A DNA stretch of 64,000 nt, taken from positions 62,001 through 126,000 of the forward strand of contig JAPEUD010000017.1 in NCBI GenBank assembly GCA_026026165.1. Reading direction: 5' to 3'. Made by a program: the position numbers and the translations under genes. The notes beneath the pieces are model-generated. The model had not been told where the DNA came from and ran no database searches. It worked only from the letters and a program-made list of their open reading frames with translations. Within the stretch, counting starts at the first letter, position 1; each line of letters begins with the position of its first letter. Shown piece after piece: positions 2,127-64,000 of the stretch. This stretch comes from Sarea resinae. Lineage: Eukaryota.

Positions 2127-3538
2127 ATGGTACAAGTTGGCGAGACGATTGCGGTGGTCGATAAGTCAGGCAAGATAATCAGCACAGTAAGGCTTCATTC
2201 CTCCCATCTCAGTGATACGGGTCATCCTGACTCGCTTGGTAGAGCAAACACCTTCTCGCCGTCTTCAAAGAAGCCAAAAGCGCCTACCGCGAAAAGAAAG
2301 CCACCATCGCCGCCGACCGCCAGGCCGAAGTCGACGCCAAAAACATCCGTCGTGCCCCCAAAGCCTTCACCATCGACGACGATGTCCGCTCAGACACTAC
2401 ATCGCGAGCCTCGTCGCGAGGTAGCCATCGGAGAAGCAAGCATGCCTCTAAGCATCATCAGAACTCGGGTCGAAATCATGACAAAGACCTCCGACGAAAA
2501 CCAATGCCAGCCGACTTTCACTACACGCCAGATGAGCATTATCCTGTAGAAAGGCACGAGCTCACCCGGCGCCATACCACCGCTGATGGCCACGAGCTCG
2601 GGCTCGTCCGCGCGCAGCCAGTGCGCACCGTCTCAACTCCCAGCTACGAGCATCACCACGACGACCACCATATCGACATGGACCTCGCATACGGAGACAT
2701 CCCCCCTCCGCTCCCTCCAGCTGCAGACGAGGAGAAAGAGCTCGCAACTCGCGTGTCAAAGATAACCATGCTGCTCGATGAAGCACACTGTCTCCAGTAC
2801 ACCGCTACTTCGATGATCGCGCACCTTCAAAAGAACCCTGACGCCATGGCCGCCGTTGCGCTCACGCTCGCAGAGATAAGCAATCTTGTCGCCAAGATGG
2901 CTCCTGGGGCACTCACGGCGCTCAAAGCCAGCTCGCCCGCCATCTTCGCCCTCCTCGCATCGCCGCAATTCATGATCGCCGCCGGCGCAGGTGTGGGCAT
3001 CACCATTGTGGCTCTGGGGGGTTATAAGATTGTCAAGAAGATTCAGGCTAGGAATGCCGAGCGGGAAGAGCCGATGGCGATGGCGATGGAGGCCGAGAGA
3101 GGCGGAGATGACGTGGCCGAGCTGCAGGAGATCGGCGGATCCGTCAATAATATCGAACACTGGCGTCGCGGGATCGCAGACGTCTCAGCCGAGAGCTATG
3201 GCACGAGTGTTGATGGCGAATTCATCACCCCCGATGCTTTTGCTCTTATGAGAGGTGCAGCTGTGGGCGACGAAGCCATCAGACCCAGGACCAGCGGCGG
3301 CATCAGAAACGCGGATTGGGACCGAGACACGCCCTCGGCGCTTATGCCGGATACACTGGTTCGATCGAAGACTAGTGCTGGCGACCACCCTCGACGGGCG
3401 TCTTCTCACCGCGCGAAAAGCACGACGAGCTCGCACTCGAGGTCTAATTCGAAGCGCGGCAGCAAAAAGTCAGACAAGAAAACTGGTAAAGCAGAGAAAA
3501 AGCCGTCCGGCTTGAGATTACTATTCCATGCTGCGTAG
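2127..3538 (+). CDS. Conserved fungal hypothetical protein with a hydrophobic/TM segment; 2 exons (2127-2186, 2243-3538)
   Basis: GTAAGG...CTGAC...TAG intron 2187-2242 joins MVQVGETIAVVDKSGKIIST to SKHLLAVFKEAKSAYREKKA, in frame with ORF 2504-3538. Contains DMDLAYG, LLDEAHCLQY, NPDAMAAVALTLAEISN and a hydrophobic AAGAGVGITIVALGGYK segment, a pattern I recognise from Pezizomycotina hypothetical proteins. Confidence 0.85.
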
Positions 3539-4325
3539 TAGCGTTTTCTTGAAATCCTCGTGCGCCCTATTCTGATTTTGTGCTTTTTGCTCAGGATCTC
3601 TTATCATCGATGGTTTTGACTTTGAGCGTGGCACATCTAGGCGTTGGGCATTTAAATCAATGCGATCATGACTCAAGACCGGCGCTTTTTCTTTTTCTAC
3701 CTTTTGATTTGCATAGCTAGATCATTTGGTGCCTGCTTCGACTCTTCTATTATCATACATGCAGACGTATATACCTCTTGTACATGCATGATCCTCCTCT
3801 GACAGCTTCAAACGAGCAAGCGAGAAAACGGAAACAATGAAGGAACGGCCAAGGAAGCCAGCGAGCCAGCTCAACAACCTTACCTAAGCTTCTACTCTGG
3901 CGCCTACGTCATTTTTTCATCTTTTGCTTTTCTCAGCTTACCCTTCGACCCCGGGCTTTCATCGTATACAGATCTAATTCTCTCTTCTTGATTAGAAAAC
4001 ATATGGTCCAATTCACAGTGACAACGGCCTCCTCGGCTTTGTCCTCTTTATACCCGGATCGTGGTGCCTTGCTAGTGAGATTATCCTATAGTTCGAGGAC
4101 AGGGTGCACCACGACGATAACCACAACCACAACCACAACCGTCACGGCCACAGCCCATGGCCACGATTGCAAAGCAACTTACGCAGAAGCCCACTTGAAT
4201 CTGATCTAGACTAGACCGATTGACTGGATTTCAAAGCCACTGAGTAGCAGATACACCCGACGGGCTGGCTACTAAGGCTCTTAATCTGGCCCTTGTTGAT
4301 CTGCCCAGGAGGGGTCTGAGAGATT

Positions 4326-4450
4326 GGTAGGTAGGTAGGTAGGTAGGTAGGTAGATGGGTAGGTAGAGTAGATGGGTAGGTAGGTAGGTAGGGTAGGTAA
4401 GCAGGGTGGTAGGTAGAATAGAGTAGAGTAGAGTAGAGTAGAGCAGAGTA
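4326..4450. repeat. Compound microsatellite (GTAG)n grading into (GAGTA)n
   Basis: Directly visible: ggtaggtaggtagg... followed by gagtagagtagagtagagta. Confidence 0.95.
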
Positions 4451-5111
4451 GCAGCGAGCCAGTCTAGAGGGACAGAAGAAGAGCAATACTAGGAATGCTA
4501 ACTTGTTTTTATTAGCGTTGTTGTTGTCGTTGCTTTTGTTTGATCGTGGTAGTGTGTTATTTGGTTGGTTTATCGAGATTGTTTACTTTGCGTATTTCTC
4601 TTACATCCGCAACTCCTATCCCTTCCTGTACTACCCCTCTTTTCTTCTATTCGCTCCTCTCTACTCCTTCTATTCACTACTTTCTCACCCTTCACTACTA
4701 AACAGTGCAACCTAATCATTCTGCTGAATTAGCAGCCGACTATAGTCAGATTGCCTACTACCCTCTCTCTCTTTCTCTGCAGTTTCTTTACAATCTTGCC
4801 ACTCTCTATTTTTAGATCCGGTATCCTCTAGATCTAAGAGATCTTGCTTATAGAGAAAGAAGGGGCGGGATCAAACTACATGTGCCTTTCCTCACTCTTC
4901 TATTCTGTTTTCTCTGCGTAAGAAATAAAACGAAGGGAGGGAGGAAACTATTAATATTTCTCGAATTTACTGACTTTGTTTAGTACGACAATAGCTTTCC
5001 TCTCTGTAGGAGACGTTGTTTGAAAAGACAAGTCGAGGATGCTAATGCCATATATTACTTCAGAGATAGCGATAGAGAACAGTGAATATGTGTTGGTAAA
5101 GAGGAAACATA

Positions 5112-5133
5112 ACACACACACACACACACACAC
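5112..5133. repeat. (CA)n microsatellite
   Basis: Uninterrupted acacac run; a shorter one lies at about 5688-5700. Confidence 0.95.
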
Positions 5134-5821
5134 GTAAGAGTACTAGAGAAAATAGCACTTACCCTGCCGGGCAAAAGGTACAACAGCATGTAAAAATAAG
5201 CCAGGTGAGGTGGTATATCCGTGCAGTGAATACCACGCTCAGACGTCTACTAAAGTCTACAGAACAATAAGTCTACCGAAAACATCACTTTTTTCTGCGT
5301 ATTGACATTCCTATTGACTTTGATATAATAACAACATAAGATATAACACGTTGGTAACTTCTAATTAATTGATAAGGCCCTCTACCGACGAGACTGAGAC
5401 TGCGGCGTGGTGTGAAGGAGACCTGTCAGGGTAGGTAGCGTACTTAGGGGGTCCAGGTACGTGGTAGACTCAACACCACAATAAGAATCTCACGATAGCA
5501 ATACCACAATAGCAATACCACAATAACAACACCAATAACACTCACTTTAACCCTATCACATACACACTAATTAGACCTCGCCTCCTTGCACGTCATAAAA
5601 GCAGTCACCTTTATTCAGTTGCAGAGAGAACCCCTATTGACTCTCTCTATTGTCATCGCCGACACACGTAGAATCGAAACATCTAAGACACACACACACA
5701 GCCCCCCTATTCCCCCAACTCTCCTTCTCAATAGATCCGAATCGGGAATACCACGTCGATATTGACAGAGGATTCACAGTATTTGCAGCAATAACACGCA
5801 TGATAGGCGAGATCCTCTAGG

Positions 5822-5880
5822 TATATAAACCAGCTGGGCCCCCCGTTCTTCCTCCTCTTCCTTTTCTTTCTTTCTTTCTC
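5822..5880 (+). promoter_or_regulatory. TATA box plus CT-rich tract upstream of the 6056 orphan gene
   Basis: TATATAAA at 5822-5829 followed by a pyrimidine tract (ttcttcctcctcttccttttctttctttc), about 230 nt before ATG 6056; typical fungal core promoter. Confidence 0.65.
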
Positions 5881-6055
5881 CAGATCAGAAACCAGAACGA
5901 AGACCTTTTTCTAAGAAGATTATCATCCAGAACCACTCACGCCGGAAGACTCCTTTGTTGATCAAAGCTTTCGAAGACGTACATATCTTCCTCATCATAA
6001 CCATCTTCATCATCTTCCTTCTTTCTTCCTCCCAGATCGTTATCATACCATCATC

Positions 6056-8128
6056 ATGACTTCGTTCACGGATCCAAGCATCGTTGCAGAGGAAGCATCA
6101 CTCCGGCAGATGATGCTCGTCCTGGTGTGGGCATGGGTCGACCAGCTGGCCTGGCGCCTTGGGTACAAATTGTATACATTGCCAATCCGATTCTTCTTTC
6201 CAATCTTCGTTGTGCTGGGCTCTTTCTTCCTCTGGCTCTTTGACGGCCACGTCCCAGCAACCGTATTCGCGTATCTCGTCTTCTTGCTCTTGGTGGCCCA
6301 TGCAGTGGGCTGGTTCCTGCTGTGTGGGCCAATCGAGCGTGAGTGTCGTCGTCTTGCCGGTGTCCTCGACCTGTCAAATGCCACCAACGACCACCTCAAG
6401 CGCCAAACGCACCGGGCCATTGCCGATCTCGAGGCCGCGGAGAAGAGGCACGCAGTTTTCGTCACGGACCGCACGCACTGGGTTTCACCAGCGGAATACC
6501 AAAAATATGTCGACATGAGGAACTTGTGGGCGAGGCAGGACCTCCGCCAATGGCAGCAAGAGAGGACTGGTTTCCTCGAGGTAAGTCATCTGCTCTGCGC
6601 TTCCTTCTATCTTACCTTCCAGGATCTGCTCTAATCATTGACCAAACAGATCATCGCTGAAGCAGCCAAGCGCCGCGACGAGGCCGAGCCTCGAAGCAAG
6701 ATACTGAACCAGAAGGCGAAAGTCGAAAGTTTAGAGGAGCTGGTCTCCCAGCAGGTCAAGCAACTGGCCTTGCTGCAATCTGAACTCAGGGACTTGGAAA
6801 AGAAAGCTGAGGCCAAGGAACGGGTGAGTGAACATAACAATATTTATCTCTTCAAAGAATATCTCGTCCATACTGACTCGTCTCTAGCAAATCAAAAAGG
6901 CAAAGCTAGAGGCCGAAGGAGCCAAAGCCCTGAAGAAAGAGGTCCAAGACCTCAAGAAAGAGCTTCGCGCGTGCAAGAGCGTAAGCATATCTGCCATCTG
7001 CTCTAGAGTGACCGTGAAGTCATGCTGACCTCTTTCAAGCACGGCGAAACATTGACCAGAGAGGCCGAGAGAACTATCACGCTCGAAGCCGACTTGAAGC
7101 AGGCGCTGGTCGCTTGCATGGCAATGACAGAAAAGGCCAACAAAGTCGCGGCCCTGGAGGCCCAAATTGAAGGCCTAAAGCAAGAACTGAGAGACTGTCG
7201 CCGTGTACGTACTTCCAGAGCCCGCCCCTAACCTTACTGCCTACCGGAACCGTACTGACCTTTCTCTAGCATGGGGTGGAGATGGCCGAATACAAAAAGA
7301 AAGCCAACTTGCAAGAGGCACATGTGCACGACCTGAAGAAGCAACTAAAGAAGTGCAAGAATGTGAGCATATCCAGAGCCATGCTCTTAACCAATCTTGA
7401 GAGCCATACTGATTTATCTTTAGCATGGAGAGCAGTTGAAGAAGGCGCTGGCCGCCTCCGAGACCAAGGCCAAGACGTCCAACGCGTCGACGCAGACGCA
7501 TATGATTGCAAATGCTCCTGCTTCTGTTGCAACGGTCCCAGCCACCGCGACACAGACGAACATGGCCTCACCTGCTCCTACACCTGCGCCTTTGCCTGCT
7601 CCTTTTCCTTTTCCGGTTGCTTTTCCATTTGTCTTCTCGGGGCCTACCAATATCGCTCCACCTCCCCCACCTCCACCGGCGCTGGCGCCCCCCACTTGGA
7701 CACCAGCAAATGGCATCCCGGGTCTGCCGCTCATGGCCAACATCCCGCCCTCTGAGGCATTTACGGGCTTCCGCCCAACAGGACCGGAGATGGCGTCTGC
7801 CGGGAGCCCTGTCGCTGGCGGCGAGGCCCCTGGCAAGCCGAGCCCAAAGGATGGTGCTGAAGAAAGCTCCAGCCTGTCCGATCCGTTGGACGATGTGAGC
7901 GGGGACGAGAAGGGTGAGACGGAGGAAAAAGATGGGGACGACCCGGCCTACAATTCGGGCGATGAGGTCCCCCTGTGGGCTCCTGAGTCAGGGGAGGGGG
8001 AGGCTCGGGAGGGCTCTCTCTTCCCCAGCGCGGAGCCTGCAGAGGTCGAGGACGAGGACGATGACGAGGAGTTCAACCGTCTCCTCGGGGAGGAAATAGA
8101 CAGGGCTGAGGAAGAGGGAGCTATATGA
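6056..8128 (+). CDS. Orphan membrane-anchored coiled-coil protein, about 584 aa; 6 exons (6056-6580, 6650-6823, 6888-6980, 7040-7204, 7270-7362, 7424-8128)
   Basis: Five phase-0 introns with consensus donors (GTAAGT, GTGAGT, GTAAGC, GTACGT, GTGAGC), CTRAY branch points and YAG/AAG acceptors splice into one open frame. N-terminal hydrophobic helices, heptad K/E/L-rich middle, Pro/Ala-rich linker, acidic tail; TATA box upstream. Confidence 0.8.
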
Positions 8129-10661
8129 AGCTCTCCCTCCCGGGCGCGGAGGGTGGGGGACGGGGAAAACATCGGGCTCCTGCCGGTCAGGATACAAGGA
8201 GGAAGGTAAAGCCAAAAAGACACAAAAACACTTGGCGGAGGAAAGATTGTTGTAGATAGAAGAGCTAGTCTAGGAAAGGGGTTGGAGCAGCCAGGAAAGA
8301 TGCTTGCAAGGTCGAGTTGGAATCGTTTCGAATCTCATGGTATTCGTGAGTACAAATCAACAGAATACCAAAGCAACGTGCTCCACCTTCTGAGAGCGTT
8401 AGACTGAACGAGTCTCTCCAATCCAGTTCAAAGCCATGGAGCCAGGGACAATCGACTCCAGATGCCTGTTTGCCACTCTCGCGGATACCGGATCAACTCT
8501 AGCAAAAGCCAACTTCTTCTTAGCATTTCACTTTTTTTTTCTTTCCGTTATCTCGTTATTACTCTGTTCCAAAATATCTCTTTGTTTCTTAGATTCTATA
8601 GTTTAAGTGGGGGCCCCCACATATCTGTGATCTCTTTCCGTCGCGCAAGATTCCTATGATATATATTAAGATACAACATGCCTTGAAGAGCCGGTCCAGA
8701 CAAGCACTGAAGGAGGTAAGACTCTCTTTTTCTTGCGGACGGGCAATCCCCGCCCGGCAGAGATGGAAGGTCAGGATGACGGCACCCAGGGGATGCATGC
8801 TGCCAGTGGTGGACGCACTGCGCGCCGTAGATGCTGACGAGCGACCCACTCTCTCTCTCTCAAGCCCTTCCTCCTTTGGAGGCGGGGTTCGAGCGGGTAG
8901 GGGAGCAGGGATCGTCGGGTCTATCCGGTCACTCGAAGGATCTCACGCTGTTCGGAACGGAAACCACGTGGAGCCTAGTAGCCCGGATGTTCGGACGGCT
9001 GAAGCACCGGACGATTGACGGGAAGGTCAAGGTGTATCTGCCCTGGCGCGCCGGGGTGGGCATCCAACGGTGTTTGGGATGGTCGAAGGGGTGATCGCTA
9101 GAGTCGAGTAGCTGAGGCAATTTGAGGTGGCGTCTTGTTCATGCATGCGGCTCAACGATCTGGATCCCTCCAACCCCGAATCGATCACGAAAACGGCGAT
9201 CATGATAGTATTAAGATTGGAAAGCGCTGATCAGGCCGGGCAAGTCTTTGCCACTCCGTCTTCCGTGCTTTAATATACTCACTGCATGGTAGGACATATA
9301 GAACCATAATATATCCAGGTAAGTCTTCCTCGCAAACGGGTCCCGAGGTGGCGAAGCGAAGAGCGCAGCTTAATCCAGAGCTAAGTCTTCCCTTCCTGTT
9401 TTTGGCATGGATAATTCAGGCTAAAATTGAAATTGACAGGTTCAAACCAGGGATTCCAGGAGACGCTGCATGAACAAGACACTGCTAAAGAATTGCCAAG
9501 GAAGCTCTTGGCTCGAACGATCATTCTGGAAGCCATTCTTGATACTTGAGGATAATACACTGAAGCCGACCTGTCCTGACTCCGGAGTGGATTTCGAATG
9601 AACTGATGGGAGAAAAGTTCCGTGTGGGGTCTTAGTAGGTCCAGAAGGGAGACTGAGAGTAGCCGGACCCGCAAGGGAGGCAGCAGCATGTTCTCTGAGG
9701 CCTGACTGACCTTTTTCGACCCTCCGAGAGGCTTGTTTGATCCACCTGCTGTGTGGGAGGAGAAGAACGAAAACATTCAAAGTGCTAGAGGATCAACGAG
9801 CTAGTATAGGCATTTCCTTTTCGATTTATTTCGCTTTTTTCTAGCGGTATATTTCCTTTTTCATTCTGCAATCTTGCCGATCAGTTGTTCTCGGCATTTC
9901 TTCTTATGTTAAATTATCCCTGGCAGAGTTGATTCGGCATCCGCGAAGAGGAACGGCAGCAACAGCAGGAGCATCGTGTATGGAGGGCGGCGGGATTATA
10001 GGAGTATCTGGACGGCGAGGGGTTCATGGTCTGGAGTTGGGAGGAGCGTGTATCAGATACTTGTTTTAGCCTTCAAATCAAGCCATCTGACGCGTCGAAT
10101 GGGCCTGCCCGTATCGTGATTGATGTGATTGATGATTGAATTGTTGGAGAAGCCCTTCTGTTTGTTTGTAGACTCTATTCAGTAGCTAGACGGCATTGGT
10201 CATGGACCTGCTCTCAGAAAAGGCTGTTCGTATCTCTTATCATGCTATATTTGATCTAATGAGTGGACGCTGATATATATTTGAGGTCGTAGTGCTTTCC
10301 TTGGTGTTGTTGTTGGTGTTGTTGTGAGAGGTGAGACATCCTGCTTTGTCGTCTAAATTGGCGTCGGCAAGTCGCGAGCTATCACTAGGGCGGAACTAGA
10401 CTAAAAGGGAGCTTCTCCATATGGGCGCGAATACTCGACATCCATACCATCTACACCAGAGCTCAGAACTGCAACATCTCATACGATATATAGCATCTAC
10501 CAATATCAGAGGCGAGCTCTCCTCTGCCTTCTATCTCGCCCTCAAGTACATTCTGCTCCGGAAGGTTTTGGTAGAACAGGCGTTGATCGGGGCCAGGACT
10601 GAGCGGACCATGATGATTCCGAGCTCCTTCGATCGGCTCCCCGTTTATCGTGCCCAGCAGC

Positions 10662-13600
10662 ATGTCTCAATTCCAGGGGCGGCACGACGATAACGGAGAG
10701 AGGACATCTATACTTGTGGACGAGGAGAGTCCGTCCCAGAATGAAAGTCCCGAAGCTCACCCAACGGGCCTCGAAGCCACAACGACGTCCTTATCGCCAG
10801 AACTTCTTATCAACAGAGAAATTCCTCTGAGGCCGTCGATCGCCAGCGATACACTCCCCTCGCCGCCAGAGTCGACGACGGACCTCTCGTCTTTCCCACT
10901 CTATGAAGCTGAGCCAGCTGATTCGACTCCTGACCAGGCCGAGAATGCACTCGGAATCGACAATTCTGAAGGACAGGATGGAGATCGCCCGCCGGAGAAA
11001 GATGCGTCCGGCAAGGAGAAGAGGACGGAGGCAAAATTAGAAGAACCGGATCAAGACAAAGTTCTGAAGCTTTCGCCGTCAAAAATCCACGAGCTCACGT
11101 CGTCTCCTCAGTCGATACCTATGCATACTGTTCCTCCTCCAATACTACCATCTCCGCTCCCGCTGGCCAGTATTTCCGAGTCCGAAGACAAGGAGAAGCC
11201 ATCGAATCCTTCGAGGCCAGCCAAGGACACCGAACATGAGCTTCCTTCCAATGGTCGGTTGCGATCTGGTAGCTCTGGGATGTCATCTTCCATCCCTAAG
11301 AGGGAATCAAAAAATATGTCGTCCATGCCTTTCAACGAGTTCACGCCTAATACCCGAGGGGCTTCACGACCATCTCTGATCTCCAGGACCGTTTCTACTC
11401 CGCCCACGATCCGGAAAAAGCCATCTTCGATGAAACTTACGGAGAATACACAGGGCTCTACGCCCCAGCTCCACGGCCGCATAATCCCAGGCCCTCTTAA
11501 TCTCGGCGATTCAAAATCCAGTACCCGAAAATCCTCTCTGATACCGGACCCTGTTCCGTCGCCAATGCCCCCATCAATACCATTACCGCCGCGGTCTATC
11601 CCCACATATCTCCAGCTTGAATTATCGTCAGAAAGGCCATCTCCTCTGTACATCCATCGTTCCGCCGCTAGCGACTTTCCGTACGAGTCATCCAAAGTCA
11701 AATTCGAGCGACTTCTAAATTTTCTACTTTTACCTCCTCAACTGGAGCAGGTGCTATGGTTCGGCGCCCTTGCATGTTTAGATGCATGGTTGTATACTTT
11801 TACAATACTGCCCTTACGATTCTTGAAGGCTTTGGGGGTGCTCGGGCAGTGGTGGGCCCAGAATGCCAGCAAAGAGACGAAAGACATGTCGAATTTCATC
11901 TATGAGGGACTGGGAAGGATGTGGCAGCGACGACGGCGACGTCGACAATCCAGCGTCTCAGCATCAGGAGAGGGGCCCGCGGATGCGATCAGATCAGAGA
12001 TTGCCCATAATTCGACCAAAGAACCTCATTCTCCGAAGCATGCCTCTATATCAGCAGAAAATGGCAGTGCCACGATCAAGCAATCAGAGCCCGACCGAAA
12101 GCATCTCAGGATCTCCGCACAAAAGCATCGTCGGACCCGTTCTGTCCCCTCGGCGCTCCTGCCGAGTCACAAAGCCGACATCTTGCAAGGGTTTCTAGTG
12201 CTCCTGAGCTGTGTCATCCTGATGTATTTTGACGCCAGTCGCATGTACCATGGGATCCGCGGCCAAGCAGCTATCAAGTTATACGTCATCTACAACGTGT
12301 TGGAGGTACGAGCCGCAAGAATATCTTCCAGTATTTCCTACTAACGATGATACCACAGGTCTGCGACCGTCTATTTTCCGCCCTTGGCCAGGACGTCCTC
12401 GAATGCCTCTTCTCAAAGGAGACGCTGGAGCGCAAAGCCGACGGCCGGAGCAAAGTTCTCCGACCGTTGTGGATGTTCCTCCTTGCACTCATCTATAACG
12501 TCGTCCACGCGACGGCGCTCTTTTACCAAGTCATCACGCTCAACGTGGCCGTGAACAGCTACTCCAACGCACTACTGACCCTGCTGATGTCGAATCAATT
12601 TGTCGAGATCAAAGGCACCGTCTTCAAGAAATTCGAAAAGGAAAACCTCTTCCAACTCACGTGCGCCGACGTCGTCGAACGCTTCCAGCTCTGGCTCATG
12701 CTGCTCATCATCGCGCTCCGCAACATCGTCGAAATGGGCGGCCTAAGCATTGGGAGCAGTCTCAGCGGAGGCGGGGATACGTCCAACAACAACCCCCTCG
12801 GGGATAACCTGACGGGTAGCAGCATGCCGTTGCGGTCCTCCAGCATCCTACCCAAGAGCTTCACGATCTTTCCGAAATGGACGGGGCAGGTCATGGGGCC
12901 ATTCCTGCTCGTGCTCGGCAGCGAGATGCTCGTCGACTGGCTCAAACACGCTTACATCACGAAATTCAATAATGTCAAGCCGGCGGTCTATGGCCGGTAT
13001 CTGGATGTTCTGGCCAAGGATTACTACTCTAACGTACGTCTATCCATCTGCTATTCATTTTAAAAATTCATTCCACCACTCGAGCTTAGCCCATCTCTGT
13101 AAACATACTAACGTCCCCGTCTCTAGGCCTTTGCAGACCAAAACCTAACCCGGCGTCTTGGGCTCCCCGTGATCCCCCTCAGCTGCCTCTTCATCCGGTC
13201 GTCGGTACAGACATACCACATGTTCCTAGCGACGCAAATGCCGCTGCCGTACCCCTCATCCAGCACGTCCATCTCAGTAGACGCCTCGACCGCCTCGCCG
13301 GCCACAACGGCGGCCCTCGCGCACATCGACCACATCTTCCGGCGCGCGCTGGGCCGGTCGTCCTTTGGCGCCGGCGGCGGCTATCCGTCGCCCACGCCCG
13401 GCGCCAACGACTACTCGGGCTGGCTGTCGTCGTCGCTGGGCGGCTGGATCACGTGGCGGTCGGCCGACGACGCCATCGCCTTCGCCACCATGCTGCTCTT
13501 CTTCCTCGTCATCTTCCTCGTGCTGCTGGCCGCCAAGCTCGTGCTGGGGATGATCTTGCTCTCGTTTGCGCGCACGCGCTACCGCGGCATGAAGACGCGC

Positions 13601-13861
13601 GAGAAAGGCGCCAGCTACGATACCGGCGGCCGCCGGGTCGGCGGCTGGGGCGTCGTCGAGGTCGACGAGGATAAGAGACGCTGGATCTATGTGGATGATC
13701 CCGAGGGGGCGCGGGCATTGAGGGAGCGCGAGAGGGCGGCGAGGGAGAGAGAAGGCAGGGAGAGGGAGGGAACGGCGGGCGGGAAAGGTGGTGGTGGCAG
13801 CAATAACACAGGATTTGAGGGCGTTAATCGCTATTCCATGGTCGCCAAGCGAATCTGGTAG
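10662..13861 (+). CDS. EMP65: EMP65/TAPT1 family (DUF747) ER membrane protein; 3 exons (introns 12306-12358, 13034-13126)
   Basis: LEQVLWFGALACLDAWLYTFTILPLR, DASRMYHGIRGQAAIKLYVIYNVLE|VCDRLFSALGQD, SNQFVEIKGTVFKKFEKENLFQLTCADVVERFQ, SEMLVDWLKHAYITKFN and C-terminal RYSMVAKRIW. First in-frame ATG is 10662. Confidence 0.93.
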
Positions 13862-37260: not shown

Positions 37261-38277
37261 TCGGCTTAGCAGCATACATACCCGGTGGCGTTAGAAAAGC
37301 GTGCATCAATATCAGGTTGGCACAGAAGCTTCGTCTGGCTATGGATTTGCCCACTTTGCTCACGATGGTGGAAAAGTCGAGTACATAGACGCAAGATATT
37401 CATCTCCCCAGATGCATTCCAGTCGAGAACCGAGCGAAAGCACATTACGTAGTATTCTGGCAAGAATTGCCTTGGTCGATTCTGAGCTTCGATCAAGAGT
37501 TTACTCTGTAGACCGTCCATGGATGGTATGAATGCTTGCACTTCATCCAAGGTGTGCTTGGTATCCAGGCATGGACCAATGGTCTTCCCTTCCAGGGTTG
37601 CGATACGCGATCCAGGCCGAACATGGCAGATTCTGCCGGTAAGGTCCGCCTTGTCAGGTCACTGCCTCACCGCCTGCCCCTGAAGCTCACTTTCCCCTGC
37701 ATGGTCCCAATGGCAGCTCTCCGCTGTCTACTCATAGTACTACTCCGGGCTGCTCTGGGACAGCACTCCATGTGTCCTCAAGAAGCTTGAGGGTCGTGCG
37801 AGACGGAGTACGCAGTACGTCTTTCTACAGCAGGCCATCTCCTCTCGGCGAGGCACGCTACAGGGAGCATGACTAGAGTACATACTACGTAGTAGGAGAC
37901 AGATCGATCCGCACGCCGCGTCAGGGGGTGCGTGATCAGCTCACCCTCAAGGACCTGTACCAGAATGCCAGCCAAGAGTACGAGCATGCAGTACTGGACC
38001 GAGGCTTTCGACCGATGTATCTATCTCGTGTTTCTGATACAACAGAATCTCCTGCGTACATACTCCGGAGTACTCTCTTGACTCTGCACCACGCGGCATC
38101 CGGGTACCGAGATGGACATCACATTATGTCTCCGGTTCCAGAACAATGGGCAAGCAGCTGGGGCCAGATCGATATATCCTCGGTCTTCCTGCAGCCTCGT
38201 CTGTATGAAAAGTACTGTCCCCATCGTCATCTCTGTTTTCAGCGCCCTCGGCGGTCTTCTGCCTCTCGGAGATTCTG

Positions 38278-39513
38278 ATGGGTCTGGAGCATTCGGATGC
38301 AGAACCTTTTCCCCCCAACATGGACAAGAATTCCTGTTCTTCCCTCCTGGATTTTCTCTCCTTTAACTTGATTCATCTCATCGCGCTCTCGAGATATCTC
38401 ATACGTCAGACGCTGTATCTCATCTACCGCGCTGTCACATACCTTTCCTGTCCAGACACCATGAACACGCTTCTTGATCGATTTCTCCATTGCATCACAT
38501 TTGTAAAAGATCTTATACGCCGAACATTACATCTTATCCACCATGCCATAAATTGCCTTTGCCGTCGGACCTTGCTTTTTATTCACTTTGCTATCGAATC
38601 TCTCCTGCAGCTGGACACAGCACTAACAGTGCCACAACTGAAAGACTCTTTATACTATCATGTCCACCTGTACGTCGCCGTCTCAAAATATTACATGTAT
38701 CGAACCCTGGATTCCACCTACCATGCCAGTGAATCCTTCCCCCGTCCGGACGTGGCAACCATTCTTCCAAGCCTGATCCAACTGTGTCTACTCTTCTACC
38801 TAACCAGCGTCGTGCAATCTACGGTACCGCGGGAGCTGTGGCTGTTTCTGGCTGGTCTTGCGTGGCTGAAGTTGCAAGAAGCTTATCCATCCCTTTCCAT
38901 CGATGCGCATCGTTATCTTGGTCAGAAACACAACCTCTGTGAAGCTGCCGAGTACAATCTCGGGGCGCATCAGACTATTCCCGGTTCATTCCCCGCGGAA
39001 ATGAATGGCGATTCGTCGTCACCCTCGTCACAGTCGGAGGTCTGGATCCAAATCACGACGGAGTCATTATCCTGGACCCAGTCCGCCCTACGAGCGCACC
39101 ACTCCGCCCTCGATCTCAAGACCGCCATCGCCGCCGAAACCCGGCACATCGAAAGCGCGCATGCACGTCTCCGAGCGTGCGAGACCAAGTTGCCCAGCGA
39201 CAAGAGCTTCTTTGGGCCGAAATCGTGGAAGGCCTGGGACGGCATCGGCCGGCTGGTGGCGAGCAAGAAGGCGGAAGAAGACCGCATCCGGAAACACGTG
39301 CGCATTAGGACCGACTTGGAGCGTGACTTGGGCCAGATCCTGGAGCTCCGCGATCGGTACTCGGCCGTGCTTTTCACGGAGCTGGGGAGTCAGTTGAAGC
39401 GGGCAGGGGTGCCGACCACGTCTGATGGGCCGGACTTGGATGCTGATGATATGAGCGCTACAGGTGATGATACGGACGGAGAGACAGAGACTGTGTCGAT
39501 GAGGAGTTCGTAG
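38278..39513 (+). CDS. Orphan hypothetical protein, 411 aa: N-terminal degenerate repeats, hydrophobic segments, coiled-coil-like C-half, acidic tail
   Basis: Uninterrupted 1.2-kb ATG-initiated ORF in an otherwise empty interval; C/G-ending codons in the 3' half; no recognised family. Confidence 0.6.
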   Translation: MGLEHSDAEPFPPNMDKNSCSSLLDFLSFNLIHLIALSRYLIRQTLYLIYRAVTYLSCPDTMNTLLDRFLHCITFVKDLIRRTLHLIHHAINCLCRRTLLFIHFAIESLLQLDTALTVPQLKDSLYYHVHLYVAVSKYYMYRTLDSTYHASESFPRPDVATILPSLIQLCLLFYLTSVVQSTVPRELWLFLAGLAWLKLQEAYPSLSIDAHRYLGQKHNLCEAAEYNLGAHQTIPGSFPAEMNGDSSSPSSQSEVWIQITTESLSWTQSALRAHHSALDLKTAIAAETRHIESAHARLRACETKLPSDKSFFGPKSWKAWDGIGRLVASKKAEEDRIRKHVRIRTDLERDLGQILELRDRYSAVLFTELGSQLKRAGVPTTSDGPDLDADDMSATGDDTDGETETVSMRSS

Positions 39514-44418: not shown

Positions 44419-46137
44419 ATGCTGGACGAGAGTCTTCCCAGTGAGTCACCCCGATTCGAAAGTGAAAGATGAGCACAGGCTGATGAACTGTGGAAAGCCT
44501 TCTTCCTGAAATCCGCCCCAGATGGTGTCAAGCACCACACCTGCCTCTACCTCACCCAGTACGGCTCCGAGCCAGCACCGGCCTACACCCTCCAACATGC
44601 CGACCCAGCTTCTCCCGCCGCGAAGAATTGCTATGCAGCCGCCATTTTCGACTCTTTCAATCCCGACGTACTCTTCGCCGAGGTGCTTGTCCGTCCAGAG
44701 TGGACCCAGCCCAGCCTCTCGCAGGAAGAGATCCGCAAAAACGATGGGGTGCCGCCACCACCTCAGCCTATCCTGCCGACGGAATTCACCATCCAACTAT
44801 ACAACCCTGACCAGCAGGTGCTCATCACTCAGAAAGCCGGGTCATGGGGCGGGTCGCCACAGTGGGAGTTTGAAATGCCACAGCAGACGTTCCGATTACC
44901 CTCAGCCTCGACGCTCGACCGCAGCCTCAGCGATCCGGCCGCTTCCTCTACTACGCCCAAGATCAAGTTCTTATGGAAGAAGGAGGGCAAATTATCAAAG
45001 GATCTCACCTGCTCGCTGTCGGGCAAGTCTACATCTCCAGACGGAAGCAGTAAAAGGAAGAATAGAGAGCCGGACATAGTGGTGGCGTTATTCAGCTCTT
45101 TGAAGGAGATCACCATCTACGAGCCGAACTTGTACAGGGTCGATATGGAGGACCCTAAGGGGCTCGAGGTTGTGCTGTTGCTCGGTGCAGCCGTCATACG
45201 CGACATTTACTTTGGCCAGATGAAGGAGGTCTTTCACATCGCCGAACCACCTCAAAGAATTGCCGAGGGCGCACGCAAACCAAGTCTGAATAGCAAGATA
45301 TCGTCATCTCTCCTAGCTGCACCATCCAGGATCAAGAGCCCCAAACCCTCACCTCAACAATCACAACCCCGCCACGATCCTCACCGACCCACCGCCAACC
45401 CGCCTGTCAACGGACATTCCCAGCCGGCTGCTGGCGGTGTGCCCCCTCCCCACACCCGAAATCCACTCAGACACACATCTCACCCGCAACCAGGATCGTC
45501 ACACCAAGCAGTGGATCCTCGTACCCAATGGGAGATCGACGCCGAGACTGCTCGGCTCAAGAAACAGGTCGAAGCCGAAGAACGCGAGCGGCGTCGAAAA
45601 GAAGAATCACGGCAGCGCGAACGTCGCCGGCTCGAAGAAGCCGAGACTGACAGGCTGAAGAAAATGGTCAAGGCGGAGGAGGAGGAAAGAAGAAGAAGGC
45701 AAAAGGAGGCGGACAAGGAAACGGAGAGATTGAGAAAGCTATATGGCGTGCCTCCACCGAAGCACCGGGCCTCTGAATCGAGGCCTCCACAGCCGCCGCC
45801 TAGGAACGCACACTCTGCTCCCTTGACGCAGGCACCGTGGGCGCATCCGCCGCCAACGACGCAACCGCAGCAACGGCCGCATGTCCACTTTCCCGTGCAG
45901 CCACCGAGACAGCAGTCACAGCCACAACCACAGCGATTCAGCGGAAGCCCATCCCCGTATCTCCAGGCCCCATCTACAAATGGCGCGCCGCACGCCTCTT
46001 CAAGCGGGTTCTTCAGCAAGAACAGTAGCGGTGGCAAGAGACATAGCATCTTCAACCTCAGGAGTCATCACAACGATGGCAGTGGTGCGAGCAGCAGCAG
46101 CAGTAGGTTGAGCAAGAAACAGAGCTCGATGTTTTGA
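44419..46137 (+). CDS. Conserved fungal hypothetical protein with charged coiled coil and Pro/Gln-rich tail; 2 exons (intron 44441-44497)
   Basis: MLDESLPT|FFLKS splices in frame with ORF 44683-46137; FDSFNPDVLFAEVLVRPEWTQP, FTIQLYNPDQQV, YEPNLYRVDMEDPKGLEVVLLLGAAVIRDIYF. Confidence 0.85.
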
Positions 46138-61855: not shown

Positions 61856-64000
61856 ATGCTGCGAAGAAAAGCGTTGAAAGATCAAAACGTGGTGTTCATA
61901 ACGAGCGATAAGGATGCCTTGGAGTCTTCCCGCCCAGAGCTTCCAGGCCCACGACCTCCTCGTCCCCCGAGGAGGAACAGAGACCCCCAACGGTCCATAG
62001 ACGAATTTTGGGCCGGGTTCTCGGTGGAGAATCCGGGGAAAGCCTTTGCCATCCTGCCAGATAATTACCATGCCCGTCGTCTTGCGAGAAAGGCACCCAA
62101 GGGTGTCGCTCGCGGTGAAAATGCCGTCACCTCGTTTGAAGAGGCTAGAGCTACTTGCGAGGCCAAGGTGAAGAAGATCGCCCGGGAATGTCGTCGTGTC
62201 AATCAAAAGTATCGAGATCCCCATTTCGACATAGAGTTTGATCTCAAGGATGAGGGGAGCCCCAAAGACTGCCTCAATGGCTTGACCAGAGACTATGAAT
62301 TCTTCCCAGAGTCTACCAAGCGAGTTGGGGTTAGTCAAGTTCTGCCTGCTCTTGTTGCAAGATGCTAATGTACGAAAAAGGATATCTTTGATGAACCCCG
62401 GTTCTATGTTGATGGTGCTACAGCGAGTGACGTTCGACAAGGGCGTGACGGTGATTGTTGGCTCATGGCAGCTCTCTGTACCCTGTCAAATAAAGAAGAC
62501 CTGATTCAAAACATATGCGTGGCTCGAGACGAGGCAGTCGGAGTATATGGCTTTGTCTTCTATCGTGGTAGGTGGCTAGTACCCAATCTGAAAGTTCTGA
62601 GCTGACGACCTACGGGCAGACGGTGAATGGATTTCTGAGGTTATTGACGATAAGTTATATCTCACTAAAGCAGACTATGATGAGATGCACGAGGATGAGC
62701 GGCCCCGCTGGGAGGCCATTACGAGGATCGACACCGAAGAAGAGTATCGACGAGTTTACCAAAGCGGATCCGGGGCCCTCTATTTTGCTCAATGTAGACA
62801 TCCCAACGAGACGTGGCTTCCCCTACTCGAGAAGGCTTACGCCAAAGCCCATGGGGATTACGGAGCCATCGAAGCTGGCTTCGTTGGAGAAGCAATAGAG
62901 GATCTCACAGCCGGTGTCACGACCGAGCTTTTCTCTTCGGATATCCTTGACAAGGAGAAGTTTTGGAACGAGGAACTGATGAACGTCAACAAGGATTTCT
63001 TGTTCGGGTGCTCTACAGGCTATTTTCGAGAGTATAGTAGCAACAGGAAAGGCATAGTGGGTATGCACGCGTATTCGATAATGAGGGCCGTTGAAAGCCA
63101 CGGGGAGCGCTTGCTTCTTTTGAGGTTCGTGCACTGAATTTGTCGCTGGTGCTTCTCATGCTTACATACGTCTAGGAACCCTTGGGGCGATACCGAATGG
63201 AATGGGCCTTGGAGCGATGGCTCGGAGCAATGGACACCTGAATGGATGACGCGGCTTAATCATCGCTTTGGTGACGACGGGGTAAGTCAAGTCATCTTTT
63301 CGGCACAACGAACAAACCCTGTCTTTGAGGCATCCTATAACGAGATCTGTGCTTACTGTTCAGGCTTTCTGGATCTCCTACAAGGACCTCCTGCGCAAGT
63401 ATCAGCACTTCGACCGGACGCGTTTATTTGGCCCTGATTGGCATATAACACAGCAATGGACTCGATTGGATATTCCTTGGACAGTGTGCTACCACGATAC
63501 CAAATTTGGCATCACTCTCGCCAAGGAAAGCCAAGTTGTGATTGTCTTGTCACAGGTTAATACACCCCCTATCGTGTAAAGTCCATTTCCGTTCTCAATC
63601 TTACAAGTACGCAGCTGGACGAAAGATACTTTATCGGCCTCGAGGGCCAATACACCTTTCAACTACAATTCCGCGTCCACAAAGAAGGCGAGGAAGACTA
63701 CCTCGTCCGGAGCCACGGAAACTACTGCATGTCGCGATCCGTGAGCACGGAATTGACCCTCGAGGCCGGCAAGTACTCTGTCCTGATGAAAGTCGCTGCC
63801 ACGCGGTATCGAGAATGCCCGACCCCGGACGAAGTGATTCGAGATACGTGCCGTGGGAGACGCGATAAGCTGCTGCAGACTGGTCTGTCTTACGACCTTG
63901 CTCATGCCAAGGTGCAAAGGAAAGAGCACGAAGAGATGCCGGAAGAAACCAAGGGCAAAGTTAACCGACCACCTACAGGTGATCTGGCTGCAAAAGAACT
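61856..64000 (+). CDS. Calpain-like (CysPc, peptidase C2) cysteine protease, multi-exon, runs off the window's 3' end
   Basis: DVRQGRDGDCWLMAAL (catalytic Cys), VIDDKL, ETWLPLLEKAYAKAHGDY, HAYS (His), LR|NPWG (Asn), EWNGPWSDGS, FWISYKD, VIVLSQ. Confidence 0.94.

Follow-up and report, generated by a model that had tools for sequence, protein, structure and literature searches.

A putative membrane-anchored coiled-coil protein of the fungus Sarea resinae with a C-x-x-H-G motif at three splice junctions and a probable history of exon-intron cassette duplication

Introduction

Why would a fungal gene carry the same short motif, C-x-x-H-G, at three of its splice junctions, with an intron lying inside every copy, and what could this motif do in the protein? 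The question is raised by a locus on contig JAPEUD010000017.1 of Sarea resinae (assembly GCA_026026165.1), of which we analysed positions 62,001 to 126,000, a stretch of 64,000 nucleotides called “the window” from here on, with all coordinates counted from its first letter. The gene in question has six exons, lies at 6056-8128 on the + strand, and gives a protein of 584 aa after scripted splicing. The best explanation that we can offer, and to which we give slightly less than an even chance, is that the motif forms periodic inter-helix Cys/His staples in a putatively membrane-anchored rod, the latter having been lengthened, with good probability, when exon+intron cassettes were duplicated in tandem long ago.

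The C-x-x-H-G Motif and the Gene Model

The splice junctions of introns 3, 4, and 5 each rebuild C-x-x|H-G, with exons 4, 5, and 6 opening as HGETL, HGVEM, and HGEQL, respectively, while the junction between exons 2 and 3, made by intron 2, contains no CxxHG. When the protein was shuffled 200,000 times, one or more CxxHG arose in 1,285 shuffles and three or more in none of them, and therefore chance is excluded as the source of the triple motif. When all 64 kb of the window are translated in six frames, just 5 contiguous CxxHG appear. All five introns (69, 64, 59, 65, and 61 nt) are of the GT..AG type and in phase 0, and the layout of the gene, together with the predicted parts of its product, is the following.

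6056-6580 (+): exon 1, aa 1-175; predicted N-terminal amphipathic helix, hydrophobic two-helix hairpin, and start of the putative cytosolic helix
6581-6649 (+): intron 1, 69 nt, phase 0; branch motif TTGAC, at a distance of 7 nt to the 3' splice site
6650-6823 (+): exon 2, aa 176-233; predicted coiled-coil segment without Cys or His
6824-6887 (+): intron 2, 64 nt, phase 0; 3' end in the 22-nt repeat family D1
6888-6980 (+): exon 3, 93 nt, aa 234-264, repeat unit 1; ends LKKELRACKS, Cys262 codon at 6972-6974
6981-7039 (+): intron 3, 59 nt, phase 0, AAG acceptor; interrupts C-K-S|H-G
7040-7204 (+): exon 4, 165 nt (84+81), aa 265-319, two units (2 and 3)
7115-7117 (+): Cys290 codon of unit 2 in exon 4, HGET...LKQALVACMA; MT replaces HG, without an intron
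7196-7198 (+): Cys317 codon of unit 3 in exon 4, which ends LKQELRDCRR
7205-7269 (+): intron 4, 65 nt, phase 0; interrupts C-R-R|H-G
7270-7362 (+): exon 5, 93 nt, aa 320-350, unit 4; ends LKKQLKKCKN, Cys348 codon at 7354-7356
7363-7423 (+): intron 5, 61 nt, phase 0; interrupts C-K-N|H-G
7424-8128 (+): exon 6, aa 351-584 plus stop; opens HGEQLKKALAAS, a degenerate fifth unit with Ser replacing Cys
7472-8053 (+): predicted disordered Pro-rich/acidic tail in exon 6, aa 367-560
8057-8113 (+): predicted acidic C-terminal helix in exon 6, aa 562-580

The spliced product agrees in every letter with P0001, a database entry that bears the name “MAG: hypothetical protein M1819_001758 [Sarea resinae]”, and hence the gene model of an earlier note on this DNA, which had been drawn from the letters alone, is the same as the public annotation. 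The exon ends and starts that this note had listed, the equal 93-nt length of exons 3 and 5, and the internal LKQALVAC are all present in the sequence. The intron strings that it quoted are correct as well, except that the three 3' ends given there belong to introns 2, 4, and 5, while intron 3 ends in AAG. This acceptor is rarer than the YAG of the four other introns, and the sole TAG upstream of it would leave an intron of ~25 nt.

Evidence for a Real Gene

Splicing is required to keep the frame open, given that the length of four of the five introns is not a multiple of 3 and the remaining one carries an in-frame stop. A codon-usage log-ratio was trained on 11 Pfam-supported open reading frames (ORFs) of the window, and in frame 0 all six exons scored positive, from +0.18 per codon in exon 1 up to +0.38, compared with +0.11 to +0.30 for the training ORFs themselves, with the other two frames scoring lower in every exon. 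The GC content at third codon positions is 0.63-0.70 in the exons vs. a total GC of 0.36-0.55 in the introns. Very probably, this is a real protein-coding gene, lineage-restricted, of a filamentous ascomycete.

What weighs against a real gene is that the 3 sequencing runs listed include no RNA run containing the stretch, the one that does contain it being recorded as DNA and possibly the source of this DNA. One Logan contig spans 6000-8200 with 0 differences, and it possibly derives from the same data and is hence not independent support. We consider it highly improbable that the gene model results from faulty annotation, or that the ORF is without function or arose very recently, its repeats then being a duplicated non-coding or decaying segment. 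Such an origin would agree with its orphan status in all searches, with the lack of any Pfam family above cut-off, and with the overall low confidence of the structure models, but it does not fit with one single frame being restored by five canonical introns, four of which break the frame and the fifth of which has a stop, nor with in-frame codon scores that equal or exceed those of Pfam-supported genes in the six exons, nor with motif amino acids that have been retained through synonymous changes.

Probable Duplication of Exon-Intron Cassettes

Three DNA repeat families of relevance here, D1 to D3, were detected, and all of them straddle exon-intron borders. The D1 family has four copies, each made of an intron 3' end plus the first two bases of the following exon, with start-to-start distances of 152, 230, and 154 nt. 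A 50-nt pair with 70% identity joins the end of exon 3 and intron 3 to the end of exon 5 and intron 5, and a 38-nt pair with 74% identity joins intron 4/exon 5 to intron 5/exon 6. Furthermore, the 5' part of intron 5 is like that of intron 3 (GTRAGCATATC) and also like intron 4 (TCCAGAGCC, at an equal offset).

To tell common descent from common splice signals in this intron likeness, we took as controls 12 candidate introns from the rest of the window, defined by GT..CTRAY..YAG signals that join open frames of 90 nt on each side. Over the last 20 nt, introns 2-5 share 12-16 identical positions pairwise, while the 66 control pairs average 6.9 and do not exceed 12, and the mean of introns 2-5 was reached by 0 of 2,000 random control quartets for these last 20 nt and by 30 of 2,000 for the intron interiors. 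The distance from branch motif to acceptor is 10 nt in all four of these introns vs. only 1 of the 12 controls (range 5-20). Intron 1 lies outside this set of similar introns.

Several points count against such a duplication, or at least against its being taken as certain. The control set is small (n=12) and self-predicted by a regular expression plus the ORF-joining rule, the likeness of the intron 3' ends is partly a genome-wide extended branch/acceptor consensus, with one control intron ending CATACTAAC...GTCTCTAG, nearly like intron 2, the exon-exon DNA alignments are weak (z-score at most 2.1), and Tandem Repeats Finder detects no tandem array across the cassette region. Because of this weak exon likeness and missing array, the duplication is deduced from the architecture and not from strong DNA identity: equal phase, exons of 93, 165, and 93 nt, similar peptide units, and introns related beyond the splice consensus are all found, and only a detectable array at the DNA level is not, the copies having diverged too far for it.

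Taken together, the sequence points with good probability to exon+intron cassettes having been duplicated in tandem long ago, a reading that we do not call certain because part of the intron likeness is the genome’s own consensus. The earlier note had proposed precisely such a duplication, and the shared phase and position of the introns, the 152/230/154-nt spacing, the border-straddling repeats, and an intron likeness above that of the controls all speak in its favour. Its further suggestion that an exon could be skipped with the motif left intact follows from the sequence as well, the skipping itself being hypothetical. For exon 4, with its double length, the best reading is a pair of units, the intron between which either disappeared or was not copied in the first place.

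Conservation of the Motif

When the units are aligned from their right ends, they have 4-7 of the 11 residues of the terminal motif in common, and elsewhere only 0-5 of 16-20. The identity between units at third codon positions is 0.27-0.55, and the conserved residues are written with different codons from unit to unit: CTC/TTG/CTA/CTG for the first conserved Leu, CTT/CTG/CTG/CTA for the second one, TGC/TGC/TGT/TGC for the Cys, CAC/CAT/CAT for the His, and GGC/GGG/GGA for the Gly. Since the motif residues use differing codons between units, it is the amino acids rather than the DNA that are conserved, which in turn argues for a function of L-K-x-x-L-x-x-C-x-x-H-G at the protein level. We therefore regard it as likely, judging from these alignments, that this motif is under selection, with 11-13 residues kept per unit and the remainder near random. 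Two features detract from this view, namely that the conservation is visible only among paralogous units of one gene, and that the Cys290 unit has no HG and the fifth unit no Cys, the motif being thus dispensable in some units.

Some known motifs with similar letters were set aside. Attachment of c-type haem needs CxxCH, and the CDGSH iron-sulfur motif and the twin Cx9C fold are spaced differently from CxxHG. The classical C2H2 zinc finger (C-x2-4-C ... H-x3-5-H, ~25 residues) was likewise rejected, there being one Cys and one His per unit and no zinc-finger match in Pfam.

Predicted Protein Architecture

The Kyte-Doolittle profile has two hydrophobic segments at about aa 44-62 and 68-90 (peaks of 2.12 and 2.31; nt ~6185-6325), separated by a loop of 5-6 residues, DGHVP, and with K/R on both outer flanks. 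By the positive-inside rule, K/R flanks point to the cytosolic side, and so the remaining protein, which leaves the hairpin at both of its ends, would be cytosolic. The AlphaFold2 (AF2) model places helices at residues 7-39, 47-61, 68-137, 145-240, 242-366, and 562-580, with 367-560 disordered; in this model, the helix 242-366 runs unbroken through all the motifs, with block values of the predicted local distance difference test (pLDDT) of 65-83 up to residue 360 and of 51 at 361-370. Hydropathy and the AF2 model thus lend support to the membrane-anchored rod that had been suggested before. The rod is basic (isoelectric point 9.3), and the tail is acidic with 20% Pro.

A simple heptad-scoring script assigned Cys to position d, His to g, and Gly to a in all three CxxHG units, the Cys290 unit being less regular. 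The shift of the heptad register is constant per unit, as expected of a 31-residue unit made of four heptads plus three residues. In each of these three units, the would-be ligands occupy core or core-flanking positions, which is where a clasp between chains would need them, and the heptad positions are thus compatible with an inter-chain Zn clasp.

Three observations concern the tail and the C-terminus. The last stretch, 8057-8125 (aa 562-584), carries the acidic helix, which is confidently predicted (block pLDDT values of 72-85) and opens with DDDEEFNRL; as a motif match alone, this fits the pattern acidic-[W/F/Y]-x-x-[L/I/V] of the Atg8-interacting motif, or LC3-interacting region (AIM/LIR). 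The combination of hairpin, coiled coil, disorder, and AIM-like C-terminus resembles, as far as the sequence suggests, that of selective-autophagy receptors of the endoplasmic reticulum (ER-phagy receptors). At 7570-7630, short DNA tandem repeats, one with 3.3 copies of period 12 and one with 7 copies of period 6, underlie the beginning of the disordered tail, which is rich in Pro, Ala, and Phe.

Searches for Relatives

The protein had been taken for an orphan on first inspection, and it stayed so in every search that was run. A whole-protein homologue search returned the protein itself alone among 8,000 scored, as did the search of exon 1 against longer proteins (1 of 1,089 candidates) and that of rod residues 176-372 with an E limit of 1 (1 of 4,632). 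Using phmmer, exon 1 retrieved from 1.84 billion representatives only itself and P0002 (E 2.3e-4), the latter being rejected as a relative because it is an internally repetitive protein of 256 aa with ~15 matched residues and a pairwise BLASTP E of 6.9. Within the 64-kb window, tblastn of P0001 found the gene itself and otherwise only matches with E of at least 4.9, and scans of metagenome contigs and viral contigs gave no relatives.

In the ESM Atlas, feature scores reached at most 0.79 for the whole protein and for residues 1-175, and the structural template modelling (TM) score at most 0.42, both below lead level. The best sequence match in the PDB (E 0.0056) was discarded as not meaningful, since it lies in Pro/Ala sequence of low complexity within an NlpC/P60 protein. 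Pfam contains no family above cut-off for either the whole protein or the single exons, Rfam gives 0 matches over 4000-10000, and all 8 of the antisense and neighbouring small ORFs have no Pfam family. A sub-threshold match to DUF6611 lies at 6206-6454 in exon 1 (aa 51-133; E 0.0079, 16.7 bits vs. a cut-off of 27); it is not among the whole-protein matches at E up to 0.01 and possibly reflects hydrophobic composition only. To our knowledge, this fungal lineage has few sequenced relatives, and for a coiled-coil/disordered protein that evolves fast it is nothing unusual in itself to be an orphan.

Possible Role of the Motif and Alternative Explanations

The mechanism that we suggest would begin with a two-helix membrane hairpin having both ends on one side, which would continue into a basic helical rod of ~270 residues, then a Pro-rich/acidic disordered tail of ~195 residues, and lastly the C-terminal helix, which is short and acidic. 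Over its distal 130 residues, the rod would consist of a unit of 27-31 residues that was repeated in tandem long ago, in four to five copies, each copied along with its phase-0 intron, with selection having retained the unit ends only. At the heptad discontinuity, the motif would put Cys at core position d, His at the flanking g, and Gly at the next core a. If the rod is a parallel in-register homo-oligomer, the Cys at d would face the Cys' of the partner chain, and an inter-chain Cys2His2 metal site could be completed by the His, which lies one turn further on this face, and by the “a” layer that the Gly leaves empty. In terms of general coiled-coil and coordination chemistry, an i/i+3 Cys-His pair on one helix face and beside such a layer would be able to build a Cys2His2 site across a parallel dimer. 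Among the candidates for the staple, a bridging metal such as Zn, for which the Gly would leave axial room, is the most probable, ahead of a His-activated redox-sensitive thiol or disulfide. Periodic staples of either type along the rod would set its register and stability.

The strength of this proposal differs between its parts. Some Cys/His chemistry at the motif is a tentative suggestion, with a chance a little below even, and Zn specifically as the bridging metal is possible but somewhat unlikely. Still less probable is its boldest form, a new metal-stapled coiled coil with one Cys(d)-x-x-His(g)-Gly(a) layer per 31-residue exon module, each layer making an inter-chain Cys2His2 Zn site in a parallel dimer, so that the protein would be a membrane tether with zinc- or redox-responsive stiffness or assembly, able to change its length module by module while keeping the clasp; this we regard as improbable. 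Two considerations tell against the staple reading in general: the oligomeric state of the rod and the orientation of its chains are only inferred, and the AF2 model is a single-sequence one with a mean pLDDT of 57.7. A complex prediction with two copies of residues 196-372 and three Zn gave scores of 0.13 and 0.00 vs. a mark of 0.32, and speaks neither for nor against binding.

It is unlikely that the motif is structural only, i.e., that it marks a heptad discontinuity of three extra residues per unit in which Cys is a small core residue and His-Gly tunes the packing, without any metal or redox chemistry. The same heptad phase shift in each unit and the AF2 helix that is continuous through all the motifs agree with such a role, and so do the unit that has Cys without HG, the fifth unit with Ser for Cys, and the sub-threshold likeness to the generic coiled-coil repeat profile PF04508. 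Nevertheless, if packing were its sole task, Ala, Val, Leu, or Met would do equally well at d, and so would any polar residue at g, whereas units 1-4 have all retained the Cys and the 3 units with an intron have all retained H-G, with the other 16-20 residues down to 0-5 identities; moreover, Gly at a coiled-coil core position is normally destabilising. Quite unlikely in our estimation is that the motif serves as a multivalent docking site for a partner protein or ligand along the rod instead of as a staple within it. A periodic and conserved motif on an otherwise fast-diverging rod would be in keeping with docking, and the tail, with the acidic C-terminal helix, is suggestive of an adaptor or a tether, but the Cys sits at the predicted core position d and not on the surface, and no family match hints at a partner.

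Distinctly improbable, and compatible with the other alternatives, is that the units are diverged members of Pfam PF04508, the 23-residue “Viral A-type inclusion protein repeat”, a coiled-coil repeat already described, in which case the motif would lose its novelty. The three Cys-ending exons 3, 4, and 5 match this profile in one register at E 0.0058, 0.022, and 0.011 (16.9, 15.0, and 16.0 bits), with the Cys at column 20 of 23 each time, the Cys-less exon 2 gives no match, and the whole protein scores 18.3 bits. However, all these scores fall under the gathering score of 21.4 bits, with 0 stretches passing in the whole-protein scan, the HG part lies outside the match, the three units are paralogous and thus effectively one observation, and short coiled-coil profiles draw compositional matches. 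Literature searches on PF04508, and on A-type inclusion tandem repeats with a coiled-coil cysteine, found nothing. The periodic Cys/His staple remains our preferred reading of the motif. Its practical weight is small, as it concerns a single orphan gene in one assembly; function aside, the locus would show cleanly, in a fungus, how a protein rod can grow through the duplication of exon+intron cassettes, with selection apparent solely on a 12-residue motif bisected by an intron.

Genomic Surroundings

The region is ordinary fungal chromosomal DNA with a GC of 0.44-0.58, short GT..AG introns, and CTRAY branch motifs. Neighbouring ORFs encode DUF747, CNNM, transketolase-type E1 beta, KCH, HECT/AZUL, P450, asparaginase_2, and OYE domains. 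Downstream, at 10617-13861 (+), lies a multi-exon gene of the DUF747 family (PF05346, eukaryotic membrane protein family), found in three ORF pieces (E 7.9e-19, 6e-90, and 4.1e-15), which is a possible synteny anchor. Upstream, the stretch at 4001-6000 is AT-richer (GC 0.44), and 5460-5900 contains imperfect repeats of “caatagcaataccacaata”, a run of (AC)n near 5690, and a CT-rich leader, with a TATATAAA box at 5822-5829, ~230 nt 5' of the ATG. Three long ORFs of 431, 434, and 554 aa, at 2243-3538 (+), 38209-39513 (+), and 44473-46137 (+), match no Pfam family with an E of 1e-5 or better and may be lineage-specific or fast-evolving genes.

Comparison with Known Systems

Repeat proteins whose units match symmetric phase-0 exons are a general textbook concept. 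Tandem duplication of such exons is characterised by equal phase, the same intron position in each unit, near-equal exons, and a residual intron likeness, and the present gene has all of these likewise; it differs in that its copies are old and diverged, and that one pair of units has no intron between them. With regard to the motif, a narrow literature search on coiled coil, zinc, and CXXH found no description of it.

One functional parallel, which had been drawn before, is the zinc hook of Rad50/SbcC. Excerpts of PMC5093744 and PMC9569753 present the Rad50 homodimer as Zn-mediated. The likeness consists in a Cys-x-x-ligand within a long coiled coil and in the proposed joining of two chains by one tetrahedral metal. 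In contrast, the Rad50 hook is CxxC, while the three motifs of the orphan are all CxxH, with no CxxC anywhere in the protein; the hook occurs once, at an antiparallel hairpin turn, while the orphan’s three motifs are spread along a helix predicted to be continuous, and its clasp would be parallel and in register, unlike the apex of the Rad50 hairpin. Moreover, Pfam detects no Rad50, Rad50_zn_hook, SMC, or ATPase domains in the whole protein (E at most 0.01) or in single exons (E at most 1). The analogy made in the earlier note is therefore a loose one, which holds for the Cys-x-x-ligand in a coiled coil but not for the CxxC, the hairpin apex, or the ATPase heads.

Vimentin offers another parallel: excerpts of PMC4458873 and PMC8300659 describe Cys328 as the single cysteine of its rod domain, oxidant-sensing and linked to zinc binding. 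By analogy, both proteins would have a cysteine with a redox or zinc role within a cytosolic coiled-coil rod, although vimentin has one Cys and no periodic CxxHG, and the orphan is a putatively membrane-anchored protein that is not an intermediate filament and has no sequence relationship to it. The Rad50 hook and vimentin Cys328 are thus functional analogies only. If the layers of the Sarea resinae protein bind metal between helices, they would parallel, as a modular system of natural origin, the metal-binding coiled coils known from protein design and would add, beside the Rad50 hook, a second and differently built case of zinc-mediated coiled-coil joining.

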